Shown piece by piece: positions 6,449-13,283 of a stretch of 64,000 nucleotides of DNA (the first letter of the stretch is position 1; every line of letters begins with the position of its first letter). The notes beneath the pieces were generated by a model. The model was not told the origin of the DNA. It saw nothing but the letters and a program-made list of their open reading frames with translations, and did no database searches. A program made the position numbers and the translations under genes. The DNA is from Acidobacteriota bacterium (GTDB lineage: Bacteria; Acidobacteriota; UBA890; WLXD01). The DNA lies in assembly GCA_965205505.1 (NCBI GenBank), contig CBDBHB010000009.1, positions 608,001-672,000 of the forward strand, read 5' to 3'.

Positions 6449-8593
6449 ATGCATCGACGCGCACTCACGCTGTTGACGCTCATCCTCAGCCTGGGGGTGA
6501 CCCTGGATCCTGCCTCGAGTCTGGCTCAGGAGGCGGCGTCCGCAGCAACGGAGCCCGGCCGTCTGGCTGCCGAAGACACCCTGCGGATCAGCAACGTCGG
6601 CAACCCGCGCATCTCGCCGGACGGCGAGTGGGTGCTTTACACGGTGGCGAGCCGCGATATGGATGACGACGAGCTGTCGCGCCACACGCACTTGTATCGC
6701 GTACGTGTTGACGGCACCGGGGGGAGGCAACTCACCCGGGGAGACAGCTCCGCCAGCTCGCCACAGTGGTTTCCGTCGGGCGACAAGTTCGCCTTCCTTC
6801 GCGAGGTCGACGAGGAAAGTCAGGTATTTGCCATGCACACCGATGGCGGGGAGGCCTGGCAGGTGACGGATTCCGAGGAAGGGGCTGGCAGCTACGGGCT
6901 CTCTCCGGACGGCAGCAAGATCTGGTTCGTGGCGCGTGACCCCGAGACCGCTGAGCAGAAGCGGCGCGCCAAACAGCACGACGATGCCGTCGTCGTCGAT
7001 GCCGAGTTCCGCTTCAGTCACCTCTGGTTGCACGATATGGAGGCGGGCGAGTCGACGCGGCTGACGGACGGCGACTTTACCGTCAGCGACCCACGCTGGT
7101 CGCCTGATTCCAGCCGTATCGCCTTTGTTACGCGACCGACGACCAAGGTGAACGACGGCTGGAACAGCGACATCCGCGTGGCCGACGTTGCTTCGGGCGA
7201 GTCGCGGGTGTTGTTCCAGAACCCAGGGCCCGATACCTCTCCGCGCTGGTCGCCGGACGGCGACAAGATCGCGTTCACCGCCAACACCCACTCCGGAACA
7301 ACCGTCTGGCACAGCAAGCTCTACCTGCTGCCGGCGGATGGCGGTGGCGAACCCAAGATCTTGCTCGAGGACTTCGACCTGAACGCCGGCGCGCCGATCT
7401 GGGCTCCCAACGGCGCCGATATCTATTGGGCCACCGGTGAGCGCACCGACGTGGCGCTCTACTCGGTGCAGCTAGCTACCGACGAAGTTCTGCGGCACGG
7501 TGTGCCCTCGGGCGCCAACTTCCAGTTCCAGCTGTCGCACGACGGCGGTCGCTGGGTATGGGTGCACTCCAACCCGGCGCATCCGTCCGAGCTCTACACC
7601 GCGCCGTCGAACGATCTTTCGCAGCTCACTCGTCTCACCACCCACAATGCCTGGTTGGCGGAGTCGTTCGAGCTCGCCGCCGCCCGCCCCATCACCTGGA
7701 CCAACTCCGACGGTCAGGAGATCGAGGGCGTGGTGCACTTTCCGATCGGGTATCGGGAGGGGACGGCGTACCCGCTTATCGTCCACCCGCACGGTGGTCC
7801 CAGCGGCGCGGTGATGACGTCGTTCAACTCCACCAACCAGATGCTCGCCGCCAACGGCTTCCTGGTGTTGCAGCCCAACTTCCGCGGCAGCTCCAACTAC
7901 GGTCAGGAGTTCCTCAACGCCAACCGTGACAACTGGGGCACACGCGACTACGACGACATCATGACCGGGGTCGACGACCTCATCGCGCGCGGCTGGGCCG
8001 ATGCCGATCGGATGGTCGCGTACGGTTGGAGCTACGGTGGCTACATGACCTTTTGGATGTCCACCCAGACCGATCGCTTCAAGCTGATCTCACCGGGTGC
8101 CGGGCTCACCAACTTGTACTCGATGTACAGCACGACCGACATTCCGGGATACATGGGGTGGTTCTTCGGCACGCCGTGGGACGACGAGGACGCGTACCGA
8201 CGCCACTCGCCCATTCGCCACGTGAAGAACGTCACCGCCAAGATGCTGATCATGCACGGCGCGAACGATGCCCGCGTGCCACCGGAGCAGGCGGTGGAGT
8301 TCTACCAGGCGCTGCGCGACCTGGGTAAGGACGTCACGTACATTTCCTATCCGCGCCAGGGACACGGCATCGGTGAGCCGCGACTGCAAGTGGACCGCCT
8401 GCGTCGTTATGTGTGCGCGTTCACCGATGCTGTAGGGATGGACGCTACCACCGAGGATTGCGACGGCGGCGTGCCGGCGGTGCCTGCCGAGCCTGCCGAA
8501 GAGAGCGAGGACACGGCAGCGGGCAGCAGCGCCGACGATGACAACGATGCGCTGGGAGACGGTACTTTCCGTGTCGTCGAGGCGCACGAATAG
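6449..8593 (+). CDS. S9 family (acylaminoacyl/dipeptidyl) peptidase with PD40 beta-propeller, secreted
   Basis: Signal peptide, WSPDG repeats, HGGP, NFRGS, GWSYGG nucleophile, HGANDARV, GH; acidic tail. Confidence 0.93.
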   Translation: MHRRALTLLTLILSLGVTLDPASSLAQEAASAATEPGRLAAEDTLRISNVGNPRISPDGEWVLYTVASRDMDDDELSRHTHLYRVRVDGTGGRQLTRGDSSASSPQWFPSGDKFAFLREVDEESQVFAMHTDGGEAWQVTDSEEGAGSYGLSPDGSKIWFVARDPETAEQKRRAKQHDDAVVVDAEFRFSHLWLHDMEAGESTRLTDGDFTVSDPRWSPDSSRIAFVTRPTTKVNDGWNSDIRVADVASGESRVLFQNPGPDTSPRWSPDGDKIAFTANTHSGTTVWHSKLYLLPADGGGEPKILLEDFDLNAGAPIWAPNGADIYWATGERTDVALYSVQLATDEVLRHGVPSGANFQFQLSHDGGRWVWVHSNPAHPSELYTAPSNDLSQLTRLTTHNAWLAESFELAAARPITWTNSDGQEIEGVVHFPIGYREGTAYPLIVHPHGGPSGAVMTSFNSTNQMLAANGFLVLQPNFRGSSNYGQEFLNANRDNWGTRDYDDIMTGVDDLIARGWADADRMVAYGWSYGGYMTFWMSTQTDRFKLISPGAGLTNLYSMYSTTDIPGYMGWFFGTPWDDEDAYRRHSPIRHVKNVTAKMLIMHGANDARVPPEQAVEFYQALRDLGKDVTYISYPRQGHGIGEPRLQVDRLRRYVCAFTDAVGMDATTEDCDGGVPAVPAEPAEESEDTAAGSSADDDNDALGDGTFRVVEAHE

Positions 8594-8693
8594 CTGATCC
8601 GATGGTCGGCGCCCACGACGGCGGTGTACCCGAGCGCGCTGTGGACGCCGCCATGCTCCACGAGCGGCTGGGACCCGTGTCTTCTGGCCCCCC

Positions 8694-8753
8694 GAAAAAT
8701 CCGTACCGAACTGGCTTTCAGTGACTTTTATAATGGGACACTATCCAGAAGTG
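8694..8753. repeat. Direct repeat A1 (60 bp), left boundary of island
   Basis: Hand alignment to 10923-10982: 51/60 identical, last 38 bp 36/38 (tttcagtgacttt[t/c]ataatgggacacta[t/c]ccagaagtg). Confidence 0.9.
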
Positions 8754-8930
8754 GGTGGTGTCATAATATCGTTTTCTTTCATCTGTTCTGATGTTGAAGT
8801 TTAGTCACCATGGTGAAATAATCCAAATCAACTTCAGAAGCATAGCCCGGCGGAAGCTCCGGTAGACACCTGTTTGGCCCGAAACAACTCAGGCCGGACG
8901 GTCGGCGCACCCGCCGGGCGTTCCTGTGTC

Positions 8931-8959
8931 TTAACGTGAATCGATTCGCGTCATATGAT
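8931..8959 (+). promoter_or_regulatory. Putative sigma70 promoter with palindromic spacer for gene 8983
   Basis: TTAACG-N17-TATGAT; imperfect palindrome cgtgaatcgattcgcg overlaps the spacer; GGAG SD before ATG 8983. Confidence 0.4.
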
Positions 8960-8982
8960 CTTTCTGTCTGCCGGAGATCATC

Positions 8983-9522
8983 ATGAGCACCGACAAAGAG
9001 TTCGCGTCCACGCTGGTGGAGCAGTACCACCAGCTCACCAGTCGCGCCGACGAAATCAAAGTCGAGCGGTCGAACCTACACGAGCAGCAGGAAGCGCTCT
9101 CCACCGAGCTAACCAAGGTCGAGAACCTGCTACTCGGGATCTGGGACCTACTCGATGAGATCGGCGACTCCAGCAAGCTCCTCGGAGCGGATCTTCCGTT
9201 CAAAATCCCCGAAGAGGACGTGTCGGCCGACGAAGCGATTCTGACGCACCTTGCCAAGCGCTCGGAGCCTCGCGCCGTGCAGAAGGTCGCCATACTCATC
9301 TCCGCGAAGGGACTCCTCGGGCTGGGCGAGTACACGGATTCCGGTATTCGGTCAGCCATCGCCCGCGCTTGCAAGCGTGGCGATCTAGAACGTGTGGGGC
9401 GGGGCAGGGTCCGATTATCAGAAGAGGCGGTTGAGAAGTACGAGCCCAAGTCAAGTGGCGGTGGTGCTGGTGTTGTCATTCATGGAGGCGCCCTCGTGAA
9501 TGACGACGACATTCCGTTCTAG
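8983..9522 (+). CDS. Hypothetical protein: N-terminal coiled coil, probable winged-helix domain, Gly linker and SSB-like C-terminal DDDIPF
   Basis: Heptad-rich N-terminus; ILTHL...SGIRSAIARACKRGDLERVGRGRVRL resembles a wHTH recognition helix plus wing; ends SSGGGAG...VNDDDIPF. Confidence 0.75.
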   Translation: MSTDKEFASTLVEQYHQLTSRADEIKVERSNLHEQQEALSTELTKVENLLLGIWDLLDEIGDSSKLLGADLPFKIPEEDVSADEAILTHLAKRSEPRAVQKVAILISAKGLLGLGEYTDSGIRSAIARACKRGDLERVGRGRVRLSEEAVEKYEPKSSGGGAGVVIHGGALVNDDDIPF

Positions 9523-9559
9523 AAAAAGAGCCCGCCGCTGCGGTAACAGCGACGGGCTC
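9523..9559 (-). terminator. Intrinsic terminator (minus strand)
   Basis: 13-bp stem gagcccgccgctg/cagcgacgggctc; the single C-A mismatch becomes G-U on the minus strand, which is followed by U5. Confidence 0.7.
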
Positions 9560-9573
9560 CAACTACTCATGAT

Positions 9574-9647
9574 GGCACCGTAGACAAACTGGCAAAGTCG
9601 CCCGGCTAGCAAACTGGGAGATCCGGGTCCGAATCCCGGCGGTGCCT
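9574..9647 (+). tRNA. tRNA-Cys-like cloverleaf with 8-nt anticodon loop (CUAGCAAA); atypical or pseudo-tRNA
   Basis: GGCACCG/CGGTGCC acceptor, UA, D-arm GAC..GG..GTC, CCCGG/CTGGG anticodon stem, 4-nt variable loop, CCGGG-TCCGAAT-CCCGG T-arm, discriminator U; no encoded CCA. Confidence 0.8.
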
Positions 9648-9685
9648 CACTTGTTTCACTCCCGCTAGCAAACAGGAGGTAGCTC

Positions 9686-9730
9686 ATGAGCTACACGCGG
9701 ATTCTACCGCGTGGCCCGCCAGCCGCGTAA
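9686..9730 (+). CDS. Possible 14-aa peptide MSYTRILPRGPPAA
   Basis: Perfect SD AGGAGGT (9674-9680) 5 nt before ATG; otherwise unsupported. Confidence 0.3.
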   Translation: MSYTRILPRGPPAA

Positions 9731-9885
9731 CCCTGAAACGCGCAAGGGGCCGGGGTTGCGTCTCGCGATTGCGCCCCGGCCACCTAAAAGTCGCCCGGCC
9801 CGCTGCCGTTAAGGTTGCGGCGACCGAGTGGGCGCTTGACGACCTGCTCGTGTGGGAAGCGCCTTACTGAGTAGCGTGGCCAGAC

Positions 9886-10443
9886 CTAGCAGCACTGCCG
9901 CGCAGCGCGACTATACGAGCTGTAGATTTCGACCTGTGGCGGCCGAGGGCGATTTATCCAATTGGCTAGACGCCGCAGTAGTCTGCGCAGCCAGGCATGA
10001 TCAGCGAGCAAACGGATCAGCACGCTGTTATCGTAGATGATCTTCAAAATCGCGTCGAAATACGAGGAGACAACCCTCTCCACCCGTTCATCTCCCAGAG
10101 ACCTGATCTGGTGTCGTAGCTCAGCGAGCCTCTTCTGCTCCGCAGGGTCTTTTCCGGAGCGCCGCCCCTCTTCGATTACGGCTACGAAGTTCCGAAAGTT
10201 CAGGTGATCTACGTTTCTTACTAGCTTGTTGGTGGTCCCATAGAACGTCGTAAAGATCATGTTGTCTTCTGACAGGCGCTTTTCTGCGACCAGTTGCACC
10301 AGCTCATCACGTACCGCATACAACCCATATGCTCTTATCTCTCGATCAACGCGGCGTAAGCGCCACCGCGCAACCACGAGTGACGCCGCTAGGACGAAAG
10401 CGACCACCGTCAAAACTGCGATGTCAGCCAGACTCATCGTCAT
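9886..10443 (-). CDS. Hypothetical protein, N-terminal TM anchor plus helical domain
   Basis: 185 aa ORF with AT-richer codon usage, TM segment, GGAG SD; overlaps upstream ORF by 20 nt. Confidence 0.75.
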   Translation of the reverse strand: MTMSLADIAVLTVVAFVLAASLVVARWRLRRVDREIRAYGLYAVRDELVQLVAEKRLSEDNMIFTTFYGTTNKLVRNVDHLNFRNFVAVIEEGRRSGKDPAEQKRLAELRHQIRSLGDERVERVVSSYFDAILKIIYDNSVLIRLLADHAWLRRLLRRLANWINRPRPPQVEIYSSYSRAARQCC

Positions 10444-10714
10444 CTCCCTCGCTAAGGGGAAGGTCGCTCTGGTACCTAGAGTCGCTCGACAGCCTCTCTC
10501 TTAGTATGACGTCCTGGAGCTTGTTCCGGTTCTCCACGAGGCGCGTGATTTCCGCGTTTTTGTCTTCCAATCGCCGCTCATACATTCGATGAAACTGGTA
10601 GACGTACAACGCCAACAGGAGAAAGAGCAGTGCTGCGAAAGGCTCGTATTGGGTCCAAACATCCTCGATGATTCGGCGCAACAAGTCTGCCCAGCCGGAT
10701 GAAACTTGCTGCAT
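10424..10714 (-). CDS. Hypothetical small membrane protein (1 TM plus coiled coil, acidic tail)
   Basis: FAALLFLLLALYVY then RRLEDKNAEITRLVENRNKLQDVIL; coupled to the 9886-10443 ORF. Confidence 0.7.
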   Translation of the reverse strand: MQQVSSGWADLLRRIIEDVWTQYEPFAALLFLLLALYVYQFHRMYERRLEDKNAEITRLVENRNKLQDVILRERLSSDSRYQSDLPLSEGDDDESG

Positions 10715-10922
10715 CGAGAGTCCGAGACTTGGTGACTGGAGACGGTCGATAGCGCGCCGCTTGCCGGCCTACCATCGGTCACGGTCAGCATCGGAGTGGG
10801 CGATTCTCCTCGGAAATGGATCACGCGAACTGTTGCATCGATTTTCGCAGCCCGCAAGGTGCGGAGTGTCTGTAGTTTGAACAGAAGAGGCACGAAATTG
10901 TCTCCTTCCGTATCTGAGCCGA

Positions 10923-10982
10923 GAAAAATCCATGCCGGTCTACGTTTCAGTGACTTTCATAATGGGACACTACCCAGAAGTG
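10923..10982. repeat. Direct repeat A2 (60 bp), right boundary of island
   Basis: Copy of 8694-8753 (51/60). Confidence 0.9.
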
Positions 10983-10984
10983 AC

Positions 10985-11014
10985 TTGACATTAACGTTTG
11001 ATTTGTCGTACAAT
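10985..11014 (+). promoter_or_regulatory. Near-consensus sigma70 promoter
   Basis: TTGACA (10985-10990)-N18-TACAAT (11009-11014). Confidence 0.65.
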
Positions 11015-11038
11015 CTTCTGATTGATGCTGTAAACGCT

Positions 11039-11069
11039 CCGTCCGGGCAGCCGCCGGGCGGTTTTTTTT
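11039..11069 (+). terminator. Intrinsic terminator
   Basis: Stem ccgtccgg/ccgggcgg (one G-U), 7-nt loop, followed by T8. Confidence 0.8.
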
Positions 11070-11333
11070 GTCCCACGGACGGACGTCGCCGGCACGCGCG
11101 TAACCCGGATCTGATCGTCGTTCTCTTCCAGGGACCAGACTCGTGACGCGATGGACTTCTGTGGATCCTTCTCGGGTGTTGCCATTGCTATGGCGCTGAG
11201 CACGCCCCCGAGCGGCCGCTTCAGCCGCGGATCATCACGAATCCGTCGCCGTGAAGGGGGGCGCGGACTCTAGCATGCTCGGTCTCGCCGCCTGCCAGCC
11301 CGGCTGGTAGACGAGCATTGCCGCGGATGCCGG

Positions 11334-13163
11334 CTAGCTGAGTGAGAGCACACGTTCGACCTCTGCCGCGACCTCGGTGGCGAGCTCGGCGCACTCGGCC
11401 AGCGCGTTCCCGATGTCGCTCCGCATCTCGGCGCCGAATTCAGCGTCGTCGATGTGCCGCAGGTTGATGCGCACGTTGTAGGCCGCCGCCTGCGCCCCTG
11501 CGTGTGCCAGCAGCGCACCGGTGCCGGCGTCGCTGATCATCTCGGGGTCGGCCATCGCGGCGATCTCACGGCAAACGCGAAGCGCATCGCGACACTGCTG
11601 CACGGTGGCCAGCGGTACGCGGGTGGCAGCCTTGTAGCCCTCCTGCATGGATTCGGCGCGCTCTGCCTGCTGGGCTTCGGTGTCGCGCGGCATACGCATG
11701 GCGTCGAGCACCTTGTCGAAGGCGCTGGTGTCGGCGTCGACGCCACGCAGCAGGGCGTCCTTGACGGCCTGGCCGCGCTCGGCGATCGAGCAGAGCTCGT
11801 CGTACCGGTCGCTAAACTCTCCCTTGCCGACGCTGAGGTTGGCCACCATGGCGGCGAGGGCGCCGCCCAGCGCGCCTGCCAGTGCAGCGACCGAGCCGCC
11901 GCCCGGCGCCGGCGTGTCGCGCGATACCTCGTCGACGAAGTCAAAGGTGGTGCGGTTCACGAGCGGGCCGTCGATCAGCGGCATCGCCAACACCTTTTCG
12001 CCGGCCTCGAACGGCGCCACGTCGCGCAGCCCCATCGATTGAATCGCCGTCTCCATCAGGTCGGGCACCGGCGCGCCGGTCGATTTGCGCATGCGGCGCA
12101 CGTAGAACAGCGCCGCCTCGCGCATGACCTCGTAGGGCACCACGCCGACGATCTCGGAGCCGGTGATCACGATGCCCCGCTCACCGGCCACTTCACGCGT
12201 TGCCTCGAACACCTCGTGCAGCGGCGCCTCCTTGGTGTTGGTGAGGTTCATGCTCACCTGGGCGCGCTTGAACTCCTCGATCACCCAGCCGATGCCCTTG
12301 ACGTGGGTGAACAGTCCGTCCGTGTAGACCGGACCGGTCGGGTTGTCGGGATCGATGCCCAGGTCGTCGTAGCGCTGGCGCAGATCGCCACCGTGCTCCT
12401 TGCAATAGTGGGCCGCGAGCTCATCGAACGACTTGCCGACGAAGTCGCAAGGGCCGCACGGGTAGGTGCCATCTTCGGGAAACTTCACCACCGTGCCCTT
12501 GTAGTAGAAGGGCTCGATGTTGCCGGTGCGCTTCCAACGTCCGCGCTCACGCACCGCGTAGGCAATCTCATTGGCATAGCGCCGGTCGGTGGTGTTCAGA
12601 TCGACGTTGTAGGCGACGAGGAACTCGCGCGCTCCGACCGCGGTGGCGCCGGCACCGGCGTTGAGCTCGGAGGGACCGAAGTCGGGCGCCCACTCCGGGT
12701 CGGCCAGCTTGTCTTCGAGTCCCTCGTACTCTCCCGCTCGCACCCGCGACAGGTTGCGCCGCTGCGGACGGCTGGCGGCGTTCTCGTACAAGTACACGGG
12801 GATTCCCAGCTCGGTACCGATGCGCTCGCCCACCTGCCGCGCGATCTCGGCGCAATCCTCCATGGTGACACCGGAAACCGGCACGAACGGCAACACGTCG
12901 GTGGCGCCGAAGCGCGGATGGGCGCCGGAGTGCTGGCGCATGTCGATCAGCTCGGCGGCGCGCCGCACCGACTGGAACGCGGCCTCGGCAACGGCTTCCG
13001 GCTCGCCGACGAAGGTCACCACCGTGCGGTTGGTATCGGCGCCGGGGTCGACGTCGATCAGCCGCACGCCGGAAACGCTCTGGATGGCGGAGGTGATCTC
13101 CTGGATAACGCTCTCGTCCCGACCCTCCGAGAAGTTGGGGACACACTCGACGATGCGATCCAT
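11334..13163 (-). CDS. ftcD: Bifunctional glutamate formimidoyltransferase / formiminotetrahydrofolate cyclodeaminase
   Basis: MDRIVECVPNFSEGRD, NRTVVT, HPRFGATDV, AREFLVAYN, AQVSMNL; C-terminal TPAPGGGSVAA...ISDAG...NVRINL. Start set at ATG 13163. Confidence 0.95.
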   Translation of the reverse strand: MDRIVECVPNFSEGRDESVIQEITSAIQSVSGVRLIDVDPGADTNRTVVTFVGEPEAVAEAAFQSVRRAAELIDMRQHSGAHPRFGATDVLPFVPVSGVTMEDCAEIARQVGERIGTELGIPVYLYENAASRPQRRNLSRVRAGEYEGLEDKLADPEWAPDFGPSELNAGAGATAVGAREFLVAYNVDLNTTDRRYANEIAYAVRERGRWKRTGNIEPFYYKGTVVKFPEDGTYPCGPCDFVGKSFDELAAHYCKEHGGDLRQRYDDLGIDPDNPTGPVYTDGLFTHVKGIGWVIEEFKRAQVSMNLTNTKEAPLHEVFEATREVAGERGIVITGSEIVGVVPYEVMREAALFYVRRMRKSTGAPVPDLMETAIQSMGLRDVAPFEAGEKVLAMPLIDGPLVNRTTFDFVDEVSRDTPAPGGGSVAALAGALGGALAAMVANLSVGKGEFSDRYDELCSIAERGQAVKDALLRGVDADTSAFDKVLDAMRMPRDTEAQQAERAESMQEGYKAATRVPLATVQQCRDALRVCREIAAMADPEMISDAGTGALLAHAGAQAAAYNVRINLRHIDDAEFGAEMRSDIGNALAECAELATEVAAEVERVLSLS

Positions 13164-13283
13164 TTGAAGCCTCGTATTCACTGGGCTGGTTGGCGTTTCG
13201 GTCGGCCCATGATGCCCATGGAAACTCGAGGGCACAAACACCGCGTCCGACTAAATGGTGCCGGCTACGATATCAACCGGGTG

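Follow-up and report, generated by a model that had tools for sequence, protein, structure and literature searches.

IS1 target duplications measure 8–9 bp. Classical IS1 encodes InsA and InsAB′ with a −1 frameshift, and its InsA is a zinc-finger/HTH protein. In the account given in PMC12428005, IS1 is 768 bp long, and InsA binds its inverted repeats (IRs) and represses it. A second point of comparison lies in prophages: PMC13687109 describes DUF669 proteins that are not OB-fold SSBs yet end in DDDIPF, and its authors propose that mimicry of the SSB tail gives these proteins access to host partners. The locus described here shares features with both systems and differs from each.

We analyzed a window of 64,000 nt from an Acidobacteriota genome, in which positions 8694–11069 span a ~2.3-kb segment of lower GC content. 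GC across 8600–11150 is 0.52–0.60, against 0.63–0.71 in the flanks, and the segment lies between an S9 peptidase gene (6449–8593) and a minus-strand formiminotransferase-cyclodeaminase (FTCD) gene (11334–13241). The first-pass annotation had described an AT-richer island bounded by 60-bp direct repeats and lacking an integrase, with a DDDIPF-tailed protein, a tRNA-like RNA and a micro-ORF on the plus strand and two TM proteins on the minus strand. GC profile, repeat comparison and domain scans recovered every listed feature at its annotated position. Scans of three island ORFs (WH, TM185, TM96) detected neither an integrase nor a recombinase domain, and the neighbors are the peptidase and FTCD. 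Terminal inverted repeats, an 8-bp duplication within the direct repeats and a transposase remnant at 9799–9870 had not been listed. We conclude that the segment probably derives from an IS1-family transposon and became non-autonomous through deletion of the transposase gene. A decayed transposon would explain the apparent orphan island, including why it looks repeat-bounded and integrase-less.

The remnant comprises the last 23 codons and stop of an IS1-family transposase (9799–9870, plus strand), the rest of the gene being deleted. Window positions 9799–9867 align with residues 266–288 of the intact transposase in a related genome, G005 (14/23 identical, E 2e-6), and the alignment of the window with a second relative, G003, breaks at this remnant. 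The intact relatives share one arrangement of parts: winged-helix protein, hairpin, tRNA-like RNA, proline-rich leader peptide, hairpin and IS1-family transposase. This arrangement was seen in three genomes of the same taxonomic order as the host, namely G003 (L022 7664–10488), G005 (L008 252–2156) and G020 (L060). The mobile cassette proposed in the first-pass annotation holds up, and its combination of parts is found again elsewhere.

Several features tie these relatives to IS1. Their DDE transposase has an N-terminal helix-turn-helix and fits the IS1 family model better than any other, their terminal inverted repeats begin with GGT, related elements have 8-bp target duplications, and a separate small DNA-binding regulator lies upstream of the catalytic part, analogous to InsA. 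Among NCBIfam models, NF033558 ‘IS1 family transposase’ is the best match for the intact G003 and G005 transposases (E 2.5e-17 and 1.3e-17), although their scores of 63–64 bits fall under the curated NCBI cut-off of 100; Pfam DDE_Tnp_IS1 matches the intact relatives at 24.6 bits, where the cut-off is 24.1. Other features set them apart. The elements measure 1.9–2.8 kb, compared with the 768 bp given for IS1 in PMC12428005, and in place of the InsA/InsAB′ frameshift arrangement they carry one transposase ORF of ~290 aa with no frameshift (single ORFs of 276–291 aa in G003, G005 and G000-C4). Their regulator, a coiled coil plus winged helix that in the window’s copy bears an SSB tail, is unrelated to InsA, and a tRNA-like RNA and proline-rich leader peptide stand between regulator and transposase. 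The window’s copy differs further from IS1 in having no transposase gene of its own; it would now be mobile only if a related transposase acted in trans.

The two direct repeats (8694–8753 and 10923–10982) are 60 nt long and 85% identical. Searching the window’s own genome with 8694–8800 (107 nt) gave five matches, of which the two significant ones are the repeats themselves (E 2.5e-50 and 1.2e-12) and the other three have E > 0.5. Each repeat can be divided into an IS-end-like motif of 52 nt and a target duplication of 8 bp. The left motif copy (8694–8745, plus strand) ends like an insertion sequence (...ATAATGGGACACTATC), and the last 18 nt (10957–10974) of the right copy (10923–10974, plus strand) form the right terminal inverted repeat. 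The duplication, CAGAAGTG, was read from the sequence at 8746–8753 and, identically, at 10975–10982 (both plus strand). The left terminal inverted repeat, GGTGGTGTCATAATATCG (8754–8771, plus strand), agrees with the family consensus GGTAGTGTCCTAATTTGA at 13/18 positions and the right one at 15/18, both counted manually. GGTGGTGTC... begins at 8754 and ...GGACACTACC stops at 10974, with CAGAAGTG on the outer side of both.

The consensus was derived from perfect 18-bp IR pairs in L036, L049 and L008; such pairs bound elements of 1.9–2.2 kb, each with an IS1-family transposase. The 8-bp duplications of related elements are identical in L008, L049 and L051 (8/8) and nearly so in L036 (7/8), which belongs to the same genome as the window. 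A target duplication was sought for the G003 element and found to be absent; a right-type 52-nt end also closes that element, at a place free of the small RNA gene described below (L022 10439–10490). The window’s own inverted repeats are imperfect, which counts against the transposon reading, and its 8-bp duplication sits inside the 60-nt repeat and is not independent evidence here.

Direct repeats and a missing recombinase would also suit a site-specific island, with the 60-nt repeats as attL and attR and a recombinase supplied by the host or a helper, for example Xer, as in IMEX elements, which are flanked by 28-bp dif-like sites where chromosome dimers are resolved, or the integrase of a helper phage, as in satellites. 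The junctions can be read as arm, 6–8-nt spacer and arm (GGACACTATCC AGAAGT GGGTGGTGTCA), and an 11 + 6 + 11 palindrome is present at the small RNA site of G003. The arms, however, are the inverted repeats of a transposase-bearing element that has 8-bp duplications at unrelated sites (L049, L051, L036), and the segment itself contains a transposase remnant. The element is also found in both orientations at one target, an outcome that site-specific crossover would not yield. Nor are there phage-like genes: PHROGs matches are weak (best E 0.0034), and two DNA patterns had no match in viral contigs. We therefore consider a site-specific island quite unlikely, and the phage or satellite remnant entertained in the first-pass annotation does not hold up.

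Returning to the transposon, it was inserted right at the −35 box of a small RNA (sRNA) gene that is conserved and lies outside the element (10985–11069, plus strand). This gene has a TTGACA-18-TACAAT promoter, matching at 11 of 12 positions, and an intrinsic terminator at 11039–11069; no Rfam family matched it. It is kept in G001–G006 and G008 and adjoins FTCD in four genomes of the same genus (G001–G004). The G005 copy occupies the same target position in the opposite orientation, with the duplication CACCAGTG. In a 151-nt metagenome contig, the left flank of a G005-type copy is fused to the sRNA promoter with nothing between, which corresponds to the empty site predicted for that copy. The same-genus genome G004 has S9 peptidase, sRNA and FTCD in succession, with the island absent. 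The first-pass annotation had called for a search for an empty site in related genomes, and the metagenome contig supplies one for the G005-type copy; within the host species itself, two DNA runs carry the island intact and contain no empty-site joint, and thus show no sign of recent movement. The accessory winged-helix protein was matched in 3 of 41 related genomes, this genome included, and its profile reached E < 1e-9 in 4 of 401 genomes of the phylum.

In G008 (L020), and likewise in the G005-like organism’s empty-site contig, the sRNA promoter is immediately preceded by the 52-nt motif, and the likeness of the left copy to these two sites extends over 68–72 nt. The left copy, in front of the sRNA promoter, is probably a solo-end sequence that is either native or ancient, and we lean slightly toward its being native rather than the element’s own. 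Exact and repeated targeting of the sRNA −35 edge, in both orientations and beside a solo IS end, offers a clean natural case of target choice directed by IS ends.

We also considered a local tandem duplication of the sRNA locus, with unrelated genes trapped later between the copies and no mobility at all. Past the 60 nt the left copy is faintly sRNA-like (TTCTGAT...), and a left-side hairpin (8901–8920) is 85% like the sRNA terminator at 11041–11060. That degree of likeness is at chance level in GC-rich DNA, a third copy at 79% falling within a coding region, and the left copy has no sRNA promoter. Other loci and other genomes, moreover, have the internal module together with a transposase. 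A trapped duplication is very unlikely.

Within the transposon derivative, the first gene encodes the accessory protein (179 aa; 8983–9522, plus strand), with promoter-like sites upstream at 8794–8822 and 8931–8959. It consists of a long N-terminal helix, a winged helix-turn-helix, a Gly-rich linker and an NDDDIPF tip at the C-terminus; the structure model places the helix at residues 3–60 and the winged helix at 82–153, followed by a disordered tail. Its end, ...ALVNDDDIPF, is identical over the last seven residues to that of the host SSB, ...APINDDDIPF. As in bacterial SSB, including that of this genome, a Gly-rich flexible linker leads to NDDDIPF. SSB has an OB fold, whereas the accessory protein is modeled as a long helix plus winged helix; PF00436 (SSB) gave no match in it at E up to 1, and the model contains no OB fold. 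The DUF669 proteins of PMC13687109 offer a parallel, as mobile-element proteins other than OB-fold SSBs that end in DDDIPF. That family is described there as prophage-borne, while the accessory protein is a transposon-borne winged-helix protein with no DUF669 match. Among five homologues, the tail is DDDIPF in two, PPF in one and absent in two. Accessory ORFs found in other phyla are not demonstrably homologous to the window’s (hhalign E 9e-4 for L121, no match for L136).

We infer that the accessory protein would bind DNA and recruit SSB partners. It would dimerize through the long N-terminal helix, and its winged helix would bind DNA, most likely the element ends or its own promoter, which would parallel InsA of IS1. 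The copied SSB tip may possibly dock host SSB-partner proteins (replication-restart, repair, nuclease) at the element, or compete with SSB; we regard this role as open to considerable doubt. How transposons tap host replication-restart and repair proteins is poorly understood for most insertion sequences, and an SSB-tail copy on a transposon protein would, if true, be a new way of doing so.

Two membrane-protein genes on the minus strand complete the segment. TM185 (9886–10443) has one N-terminal membrane helix, a remainder that is also helical and a C-terminal RQCC; its start is probably the ATG at 10437, giving 183 aa, and a homologue (P0006) is 63% identical with the same end. TM96 (10424–10714) overlaps the start of TM185, has a single hydrophobic helix in its middle and an acidic C-terminus, and matched no family above threshold. 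The first clear terminator of this strand had been placed beyond the tRNA, and the only strong terminator-like hairpin is indeed at 9560–9527, past the tRNA-like RNA. Co-occurrence of the three proteins and the RNA elsewhere, proposed in the first-pass annotation as a check, is seen in part: the winged-helix protein, tRNA-like RNA and leader accompany the transposase in G003, G005 and G020, but TM185 was found in none of ten other same-family genomes, G003 and G005 included. For the core, then, the refuting outcome named in that annotation, components that never co-occur elsewhere, did not materialize. The membrane genes, as judged from these genomes, do not appear to travel with the winged-helix/tRNA-like/leader core, and the regulator travels with the transposase. 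Both membrane genes would be cargo, acquired in the interval from the transposase to a surrogate right end.

The overlap of TM185 and TM96 resembles an operon pair, and a defense or toxin–antitoxin core could be imagined in which an AbiEi-like regulator and two membrane effectors ride on or beside transposon debris. PADLOC AbiEi models do match the accessory protein (best E 3.1e-5, residues 99–152), Pfam AbiEi_4 does so at E 0.0024, and the PADLOC ‘1TM-TIR’ model matches TM185 (E 3.6e-6, residues 41–143 of a 186-position model). These matches are short and weak and cover a generic winged helix only, and Foldseek on the accessory protein likewise returned only generic wHTH regulators; TM185 is modeled as entirely helical, with low confidence (pLDDT 46). 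Scans of the three island ORFs revealed neither of the partners that define AbiEi and Rst_2TM_1TM_TIR systems, an AbiEii nucleotidyltransferase and a TIR protein, and the regulator keeps company with the transposase rather than the membrane genes. A defense core is unlikely, and the anti-phage or toxin role suggested in the first-pass annotation is not supported, the PADLOC matches being weak and partial (E 3e-5 for the AbiEi-like wHTH) and lacking partner genes.

Between the accessory gene and the transposase remnant, the transposon retains a series of RNA features. A 15-bp GC-rich hairpin (9527–9560) stands 3′ of the accessory gene, with a T-run on the minus strand only, and the surrounding stretch, AAAGAGCCC...GGGCTCC, is the same letter for letter in G003. 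The tRNA-like RNA follows (9574–9648, plus strand), a cloverleaf with an 8-nt anticodon loop CUAGCAAA, discriminator U and no encoded CCA. The Rfam tRNA model scores it above the gathering score (47.6 bits, E 2e-8), and ARAGORN calls it ‘tRNA-???’, reading a 4-base anticodon in the 8-nt loop. Downstream, a leader micro-ORF, MSYTRILPRGPPAA (9686–9730, plus strand), is preceded by AGGAGG, with its Shine-Dalgarno sequence placed in a CUCC-N12-GGAG hairpin (9661–9684); the leaders of the window, G005 and G020 have ILPRGPP or ILPRPPP in common. In what was once the transposase leader, a GC-rich hairpin (9746–9781, plus strand; GGGGCCGGGG...CCCCGGCC) is conserved in G003.

The cloverleaf is maintained by compensatory changes. 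Across all four stems, 14 of 21 pairs have changed on both sides and 91% of cells are paired, which none of 500 shuffles equaled. The RNA shares the cloverleaf and the T-loop GTCCGAATC with canonical tRNAs. It departs from their 7-nt loop and kept anticodon, the window’s loop being 8 nt and those of relatives 7 or 9 nt, with unrelated anticodons (GGA, UGA or 4-base ‘anticodons’). Relatives with a GGA anticodon are 76 nt long and have no long variable arm, whereas the real tRNA-Ser genes of this genome have that arm and measure 90–98 nt. The setting of the RNA, within a transposon and on the 5′ side of the transposase leader, also separates it from canonical tRNA genes. A processing signal of tRNA-like shape, mascRNA, gave a weak sub-threshold match (24 bits).

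Tentatively, the tRNA-like RNA, the leader (ILPRGPP) and the hairpins would represent the former 5′ control region of the transposase mRNA; the fold would be a signal for processing or insulation, and the proline-rich leader would attenuate translation. Among 80 transposase relatives in other phyla, four have a tRNA-like RNA no more than 250 nt upstream on the same strand (L118 and L136, Acidobacteriota; L121, Zixiibacteriota; L126, Solirubrobacterales) and 76 have none upstream. These four suggest that the RNA part may be ancient and functional. Together with the proline-rich leader, tRNA-shaped RNAs upstream of related transposases in distant phyla point to an unstudied RNA-level control of transposase expression. 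More speculatively still, and with a low probability, the window may hold a relic of an undescribed IS1-family subgroup encoding its own host replication/repair adaptor and an RNA-based control unit. The dimeric winged-helix protein on the element would be the adaptor, its SSB-tip mimic bringing SSB partners, e.g. the PriA restart primosome or enzymes of gap repair, to intermediates of transposition. The tRNA-shaped RNA and the ILPRGPP arrest-type leader would gate transposase synthesis, e.g. through RNase P processing and EF-P or proline-tRNA status. RNA-library contigs span 8993–9227, in the accessory gene, and 9480–9683, in the region of the tRNA-like RNA, a hint but not proof of island transcription, since RNA libraries can contain DNA. 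One strain variant, T9615C, turns a G-U pair of the tRNA-like RNA into G-C.

The segment at 8694–11069 of the window is most probably an IS1-family transposon in decay, lodged at an insertion hotspot, an already known kind of element. It lies between an S9 peptidase gene on its left (6449–8593) and a formiminotransferase-cyclodeaminase (FTCD) gene on its right (11334–13241, minus strand), and its GC content is 0.52–0.60, against 0.63–0.71 in the flanks. Two direct repeats of 60 nt, 85% identical to one another (8694–8753 and 10923–10982), have no other significant copy in the 5.98-Mb source genome (G000). Enclosed by them are a 179-aa ORF with the C-terminus NDDDIPF, here called the accessory protein (8983–9522), a GC-rich hairpin (9527–9560), a tRNA-like RNA with an 8-nt anticodon loop (9574–9648), a 14-codon leader ORF preceded by AGGAGG (9686–9730), a second hairpin (9746–9781) and, on the minus strand, two overlapping ORFs with one hydrophobic helix apiece, TM185 (9886–10443) and TM96 (10424–10714). 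Scans of the accessory protein, TM185 and TM96 returned no integrase match. The first-pass annotation therefore described the island correctly, as a low-GC segment holding repeats, an NDDDIPF-tailed protein, a tRNA-like RNA, a micro-ORF and a membrane-protein pair but no integrase. The phage or satellite remnant that it had considered is rejected: PHROGs matches were weak (best E 0.0034), and viral contigs contained neither the hairpin pattern nor the repeat pattern. The exact 34-nt hairpin pattern had 0 matches in metagenome contigs.

Directly after the right repeat stands a promoter that matches the consensus at 11/12 positions (TTGACA-18-TACAAT, 10985–11014), separated by a short transcript region from an intrinsic terminator (11039–11069). 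The near-consensus promoter and strong terminator mark a small-RNA gene of ~50 nt (10985–11069). It is kept in genomes G001–G006 and G008, which represent four or more genera within the family (loci L012, L013, L014, L015, L016, L020 and L023), and adjoins FTCD in all four other genomes of the genus. Its 5' part is conserved (GAUUGUUGCUGUAAAC-like), and no Rfam family matched it. The left repeat region was considered as a paralogue of this small RNA and rejected, the likeness being judged chance-level. In G004, of the same genus, the order is S9 peptidase (95% identical), ~700 nt of other DNA, small RNA and FTCD, with none of the island genes between peptidase and FTCD. Given this locus and the conservation of the small RNA, the island is an insertion upstream of the small-RNA gene. 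At the corresponding place between peptidase and small RNA, G004 has a MITE-like unit of ~270 nt (L014 798–1070) with inverted ends of ~30 nt (CAGGCCGTGGTGAAAGTGTGGTGGG...). Farther upstream of the small RNA in G003 (L023), also of this genus, lie IS3-, IS1595- and IS256-like genes, which argues that the site is an insertion hotspot. The same locus carries a 33-nt palindrome, GGGTAGTGTCCTAATTCAAATTAGGACACTACC (2291–2337), composed of a left and a right IS end with 4–6 nt between; it looks like an element shrunk to its two ends.

Intact relatives identify the type of element. In G003, G005 and G020, the accessory homologue is followed in order by a hairpin, a tRNA-like RNA, a short ORF preceded by a Shine-Dalgarno sequence, a GC-rich hairpin and a transposase of ~290 aa; the tRNA-like RNA of G020 is degenerate and was read by eye, with no ARAGORN or Rfam call. 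The intact transposases match Pfam DDE_Tnp_IS1, and their best NCBIfam match is 'IS1 family transposase' (E 2.5e-17 and 1.3e-17, under the curated cut-off). Alignment of the window with G003 spans the hairpin (AAAGAGCCC...GGGCTCC identical), the tRNA-like RNA and the leader. After the leader, the window alignment skips to the final 23 transposase codons, of which 14/23 residues are those of G005 (E 2e-6). Thus, the transposase gene has been deleted from the window copy. In G003, a 2.56-kb piece of the element occurs twice in inverted orientation at 99.96% identity (contig 1, 3–2561; contig 2, L022 7933–10490) and runs up to a contig end; around it lies a mosaic region that includes two more odd tRNA calls (Arg-CCU, 72 nt; Ala-UGC, 87 nt).

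Elements of 1.9–2.2 kb on G000 contig 4, in G003 and in G005 have perfect 18-bp terminal inverted repeats, GGTAGTGTCCTAATTTGA, and encode paralogous transposases, 42–55% identical. Direct duplications of 8 bp accompany them, matching at 8/8 positions in L008, L049 and L051 and at 7/8 in L036. The accessory-bearing element of G005 (L008 252–2156) has the inverted-repeat pair and the duplication CACCAGTG, with a 52-nt motif immediately on one side and the small-RNA -35 box immediately on the other. In the window, the ends read GGTGGTGTCATAATATCG at 8754 and ...TCATAATGGGACACTACC finishing at 10974, with CAGAAGTG on both sides; the window and G005 elements occupy one target position in opposite orientations. 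Each 60-nt repeat consists of the 52-nt motif with an IS-end-like finish, then the 8-bp duplication. The G003 element (L022 7664–10488) shares its 52-nt right end with the window copy and has two mismatches in its left repeat; no target duplication flanks it, and its locus differs from the window's.

In a 151-nt contig that comes from an unrelated DNA run, the small-RNA promoter directly follows the 52-nt motif of the G005 type, which is the predicted empty site of the G005-type copy; in G008, the arrangement of motif and small RNA is likewise uninterrupted. The mobile cassette proposed from sequence in the first pass is borne out. Two DNA runs from other studies, which hold the whole stretch in one contig (12 and 18 differences), showed no island-removing joint.

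Which 52-nt copy belongs to the host site can be approached by comparison. Against uninterrupted sites of other genera, the left copy matches over 68–72 nt and the right copy over just 34–42 nt, and the end of the right copy matches the repeat consensus at 15/18 positions. On the longer match, we lean slightly towards a native left copy; the right copy would then be a surrogate end belonging to the element. Junctions of the form 'end, 8 bp, opposite end' occur at the window's left boundary and in G003 (L024), G005 and G007, as well as between two elements on G000 contig 4 and in the tandem arrays of G004; their recurrence indicates that these elements often insert right beside an existing end. 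The G004 array (contig 2, 987–6906; L043, L048, L050) contains three transposase copies of a related element at a 2555-bp period, with abutting ends 8 bp apart. On G000 contig 4 (77909–82205; L036, L037), two related elements abut, also 8 bp apart. The first, an intact copy of 2205 bp, is bounded by perfect 18-bp inverted repeats and encodes a 276-aa transposase; ORFs of 251 and 99 aa lie on its opposite strand. The second has a lipoprotein-like ORF, a small Lys/Ala-rich ORF and a 76-nt GGA tRNA-like RNA, and its transposase gene is cut by the contig end. A contig 4 transposase might act in trans on the window copy.

Extra genes between transposase and right end were found only in the two elements with the long right end: TM185 and TM96 in the window, and an unrelated 153-aa ORF in G003. 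This restriction leads us to infer that all three are captured cargo. TM185 has a homologue 63% identical, with the end RQCC common to both, and only unnamed hypothetical look-alike clusters in the ESM Atlas; its AlphaFold model is poor and all-helical (pLDDT 46). TM96 had no match in the family and profile searches run, PADLOC and PHROGs included, and the PADLOC match of TM185, '1TM-TIR', was weak (E 3.6e-6). A defence role for the pair is possible but not supported. The module envisaged in the first pass thus holds in part: the accessory protein travels with a tRNA-like RNA in G003, G005 and G020, but TM185 was found in none of 10 further genomes from the family.

The tRNA-like RNAs of the elements are not ordinary tRNAs. 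Across five sequences, the cloverleaf is kept by compensatory changes, with 14/21 pairs altered on both sides; 91% of cloverleaf cells are paired, a value equalled by 0/500 shuffles, and slid controls gave 39–52%. Anticodon loops measure 7, 8 or 9 nt, the 'anticodons' are unrelated among relatives, and the discriminator is U in 5/5. Those with a 'Ser' anticodon lack the long arm, whereas the five real tRNA-Ser genes of G000 (90–98 nt) have it. The leader peptide contains ILPRGPP or ILPRPPP in three of four elements (window, G005, G020) and has ARAPP in G003; comparison by eye of the 'anticodon' with leader-ORF codons found no link. With low confidence, we propose a past role in cis-acting control of the transposase mRNA for the tRNA-like fold and for the proline-rich leader.

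The transposase family has at least 520 relatives in many phyla, the best 80 of which were kept for a survey of loci. In four of these 80 (L118, L121, L126, L136), a tRNA-like RNA is encoded on the transposase strand no more than 250 nt upstream, compared with a roughly estimated ~0.1 per 80 by chance; at a fifth, L125, the RNA precedes the upstream ORF. By a loose motif count, a small Lys/Ala-rich ORF lies upstream in 28 of the 72 loci with a recognisable transposase, at 0.7–2.4 kb and mostly 1–1.6 kb; the window has none. In several phyla, a small protein upstream of these transposases bears the motif GGLKGGKARA...RSEIA(R/K)KAA.ARW, with examples at L121 1563–1838, L126 1759–2226, L136 2043–2267 and G000 contig 4 80911–81159.

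The accessory protein is very rare. It was found in three of 41 related genomes, G000 included, and in two clusters of 5.8 billion and four of 1.84 billion representatives. Its profile matched 12 of 401 phylum genomes at E up to 0.001, with only G000, G003, G005 and G020 below 1e-9; the other eight matches were partial (50–80 residues), and one of those genomes, unpublished, was left out. Too few relatives were found to build a deep alignment, and a pattern search with a three-protein alignment gave 298 matches, 0 encoding a relative. ORFs upstream of the best 80 transposase loci are heterogeneous. A profile HMM from hand-picked accessory ORFs recovered among these loci its own seeds and one weak match only, no SSB-like tail occurred among 44 listed upstream ORFs, and homology of upstream ORFs in other phyla to the window protein was not demonstrable. 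For the upstream ORFs of L121 and L136 in particular, sequence homology to it is not supported.

The predicted structure (mean pLDDT 75) comprises a long helix (3–60), a winged helix-turn-helix (82–153) and a disordered tail. Pfam and PADLOC give a partial AbiEi-type wHTH; Foldseek returned no match at E up to 0.001, and its weaker matches (E 0.01 or weaker) were generic winged-helix regulators only. The single SSB of G000 (148 aa) ends in GGGGDAPINDDDIPF and the accessory protein in SSGGGAGVVIHGGALVNDDDIPF; the last seven residues, after a Gly-rich linker, are common to both. Two of the five homologues carry a DDDIPF terminus and a third finishes in PPF behind an acidic stretch; the other two are tail-less. 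A recent paper reports prophage DUF669 proteins with DDDIPF ends and proposes that they mimic SSB (PMC13687109); InsA of IS1 is described as a small protein that binds the inverted repeats and represses transcription and transposition (PMC12428005). The SSB-identical tail and these precedents suggest, by analogy, that the accessory protein may be an InsA-like DNA-binding regulator or adaptor, predicted also to dock SSB-partner proteins.

In open-access text, none of the papers listed described an SSB-tailed transposon protein, ISMhu11 with IS1 had no paper, and nothing relevant stood among the matches listed for an IS1-family passenger gene or tRNA. Within open-access article text, the SSB-tail-copying winged-helix accessory protein on a transposon, the tRNA-like RNA ahead of a transposase leader and the ILPRGPP leader peptide each appear undescribed. 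Metatranscriptome contigs from two libraries cover 8993–9227 and 9480–9683, hinting at transcription of the island; gaps in these libraries outside the two intervals are uninformative on expression. One of the differences in the two DNA runs from other studies, T9615C, replaces a G-U pairing with G-C in the anticodon stem.
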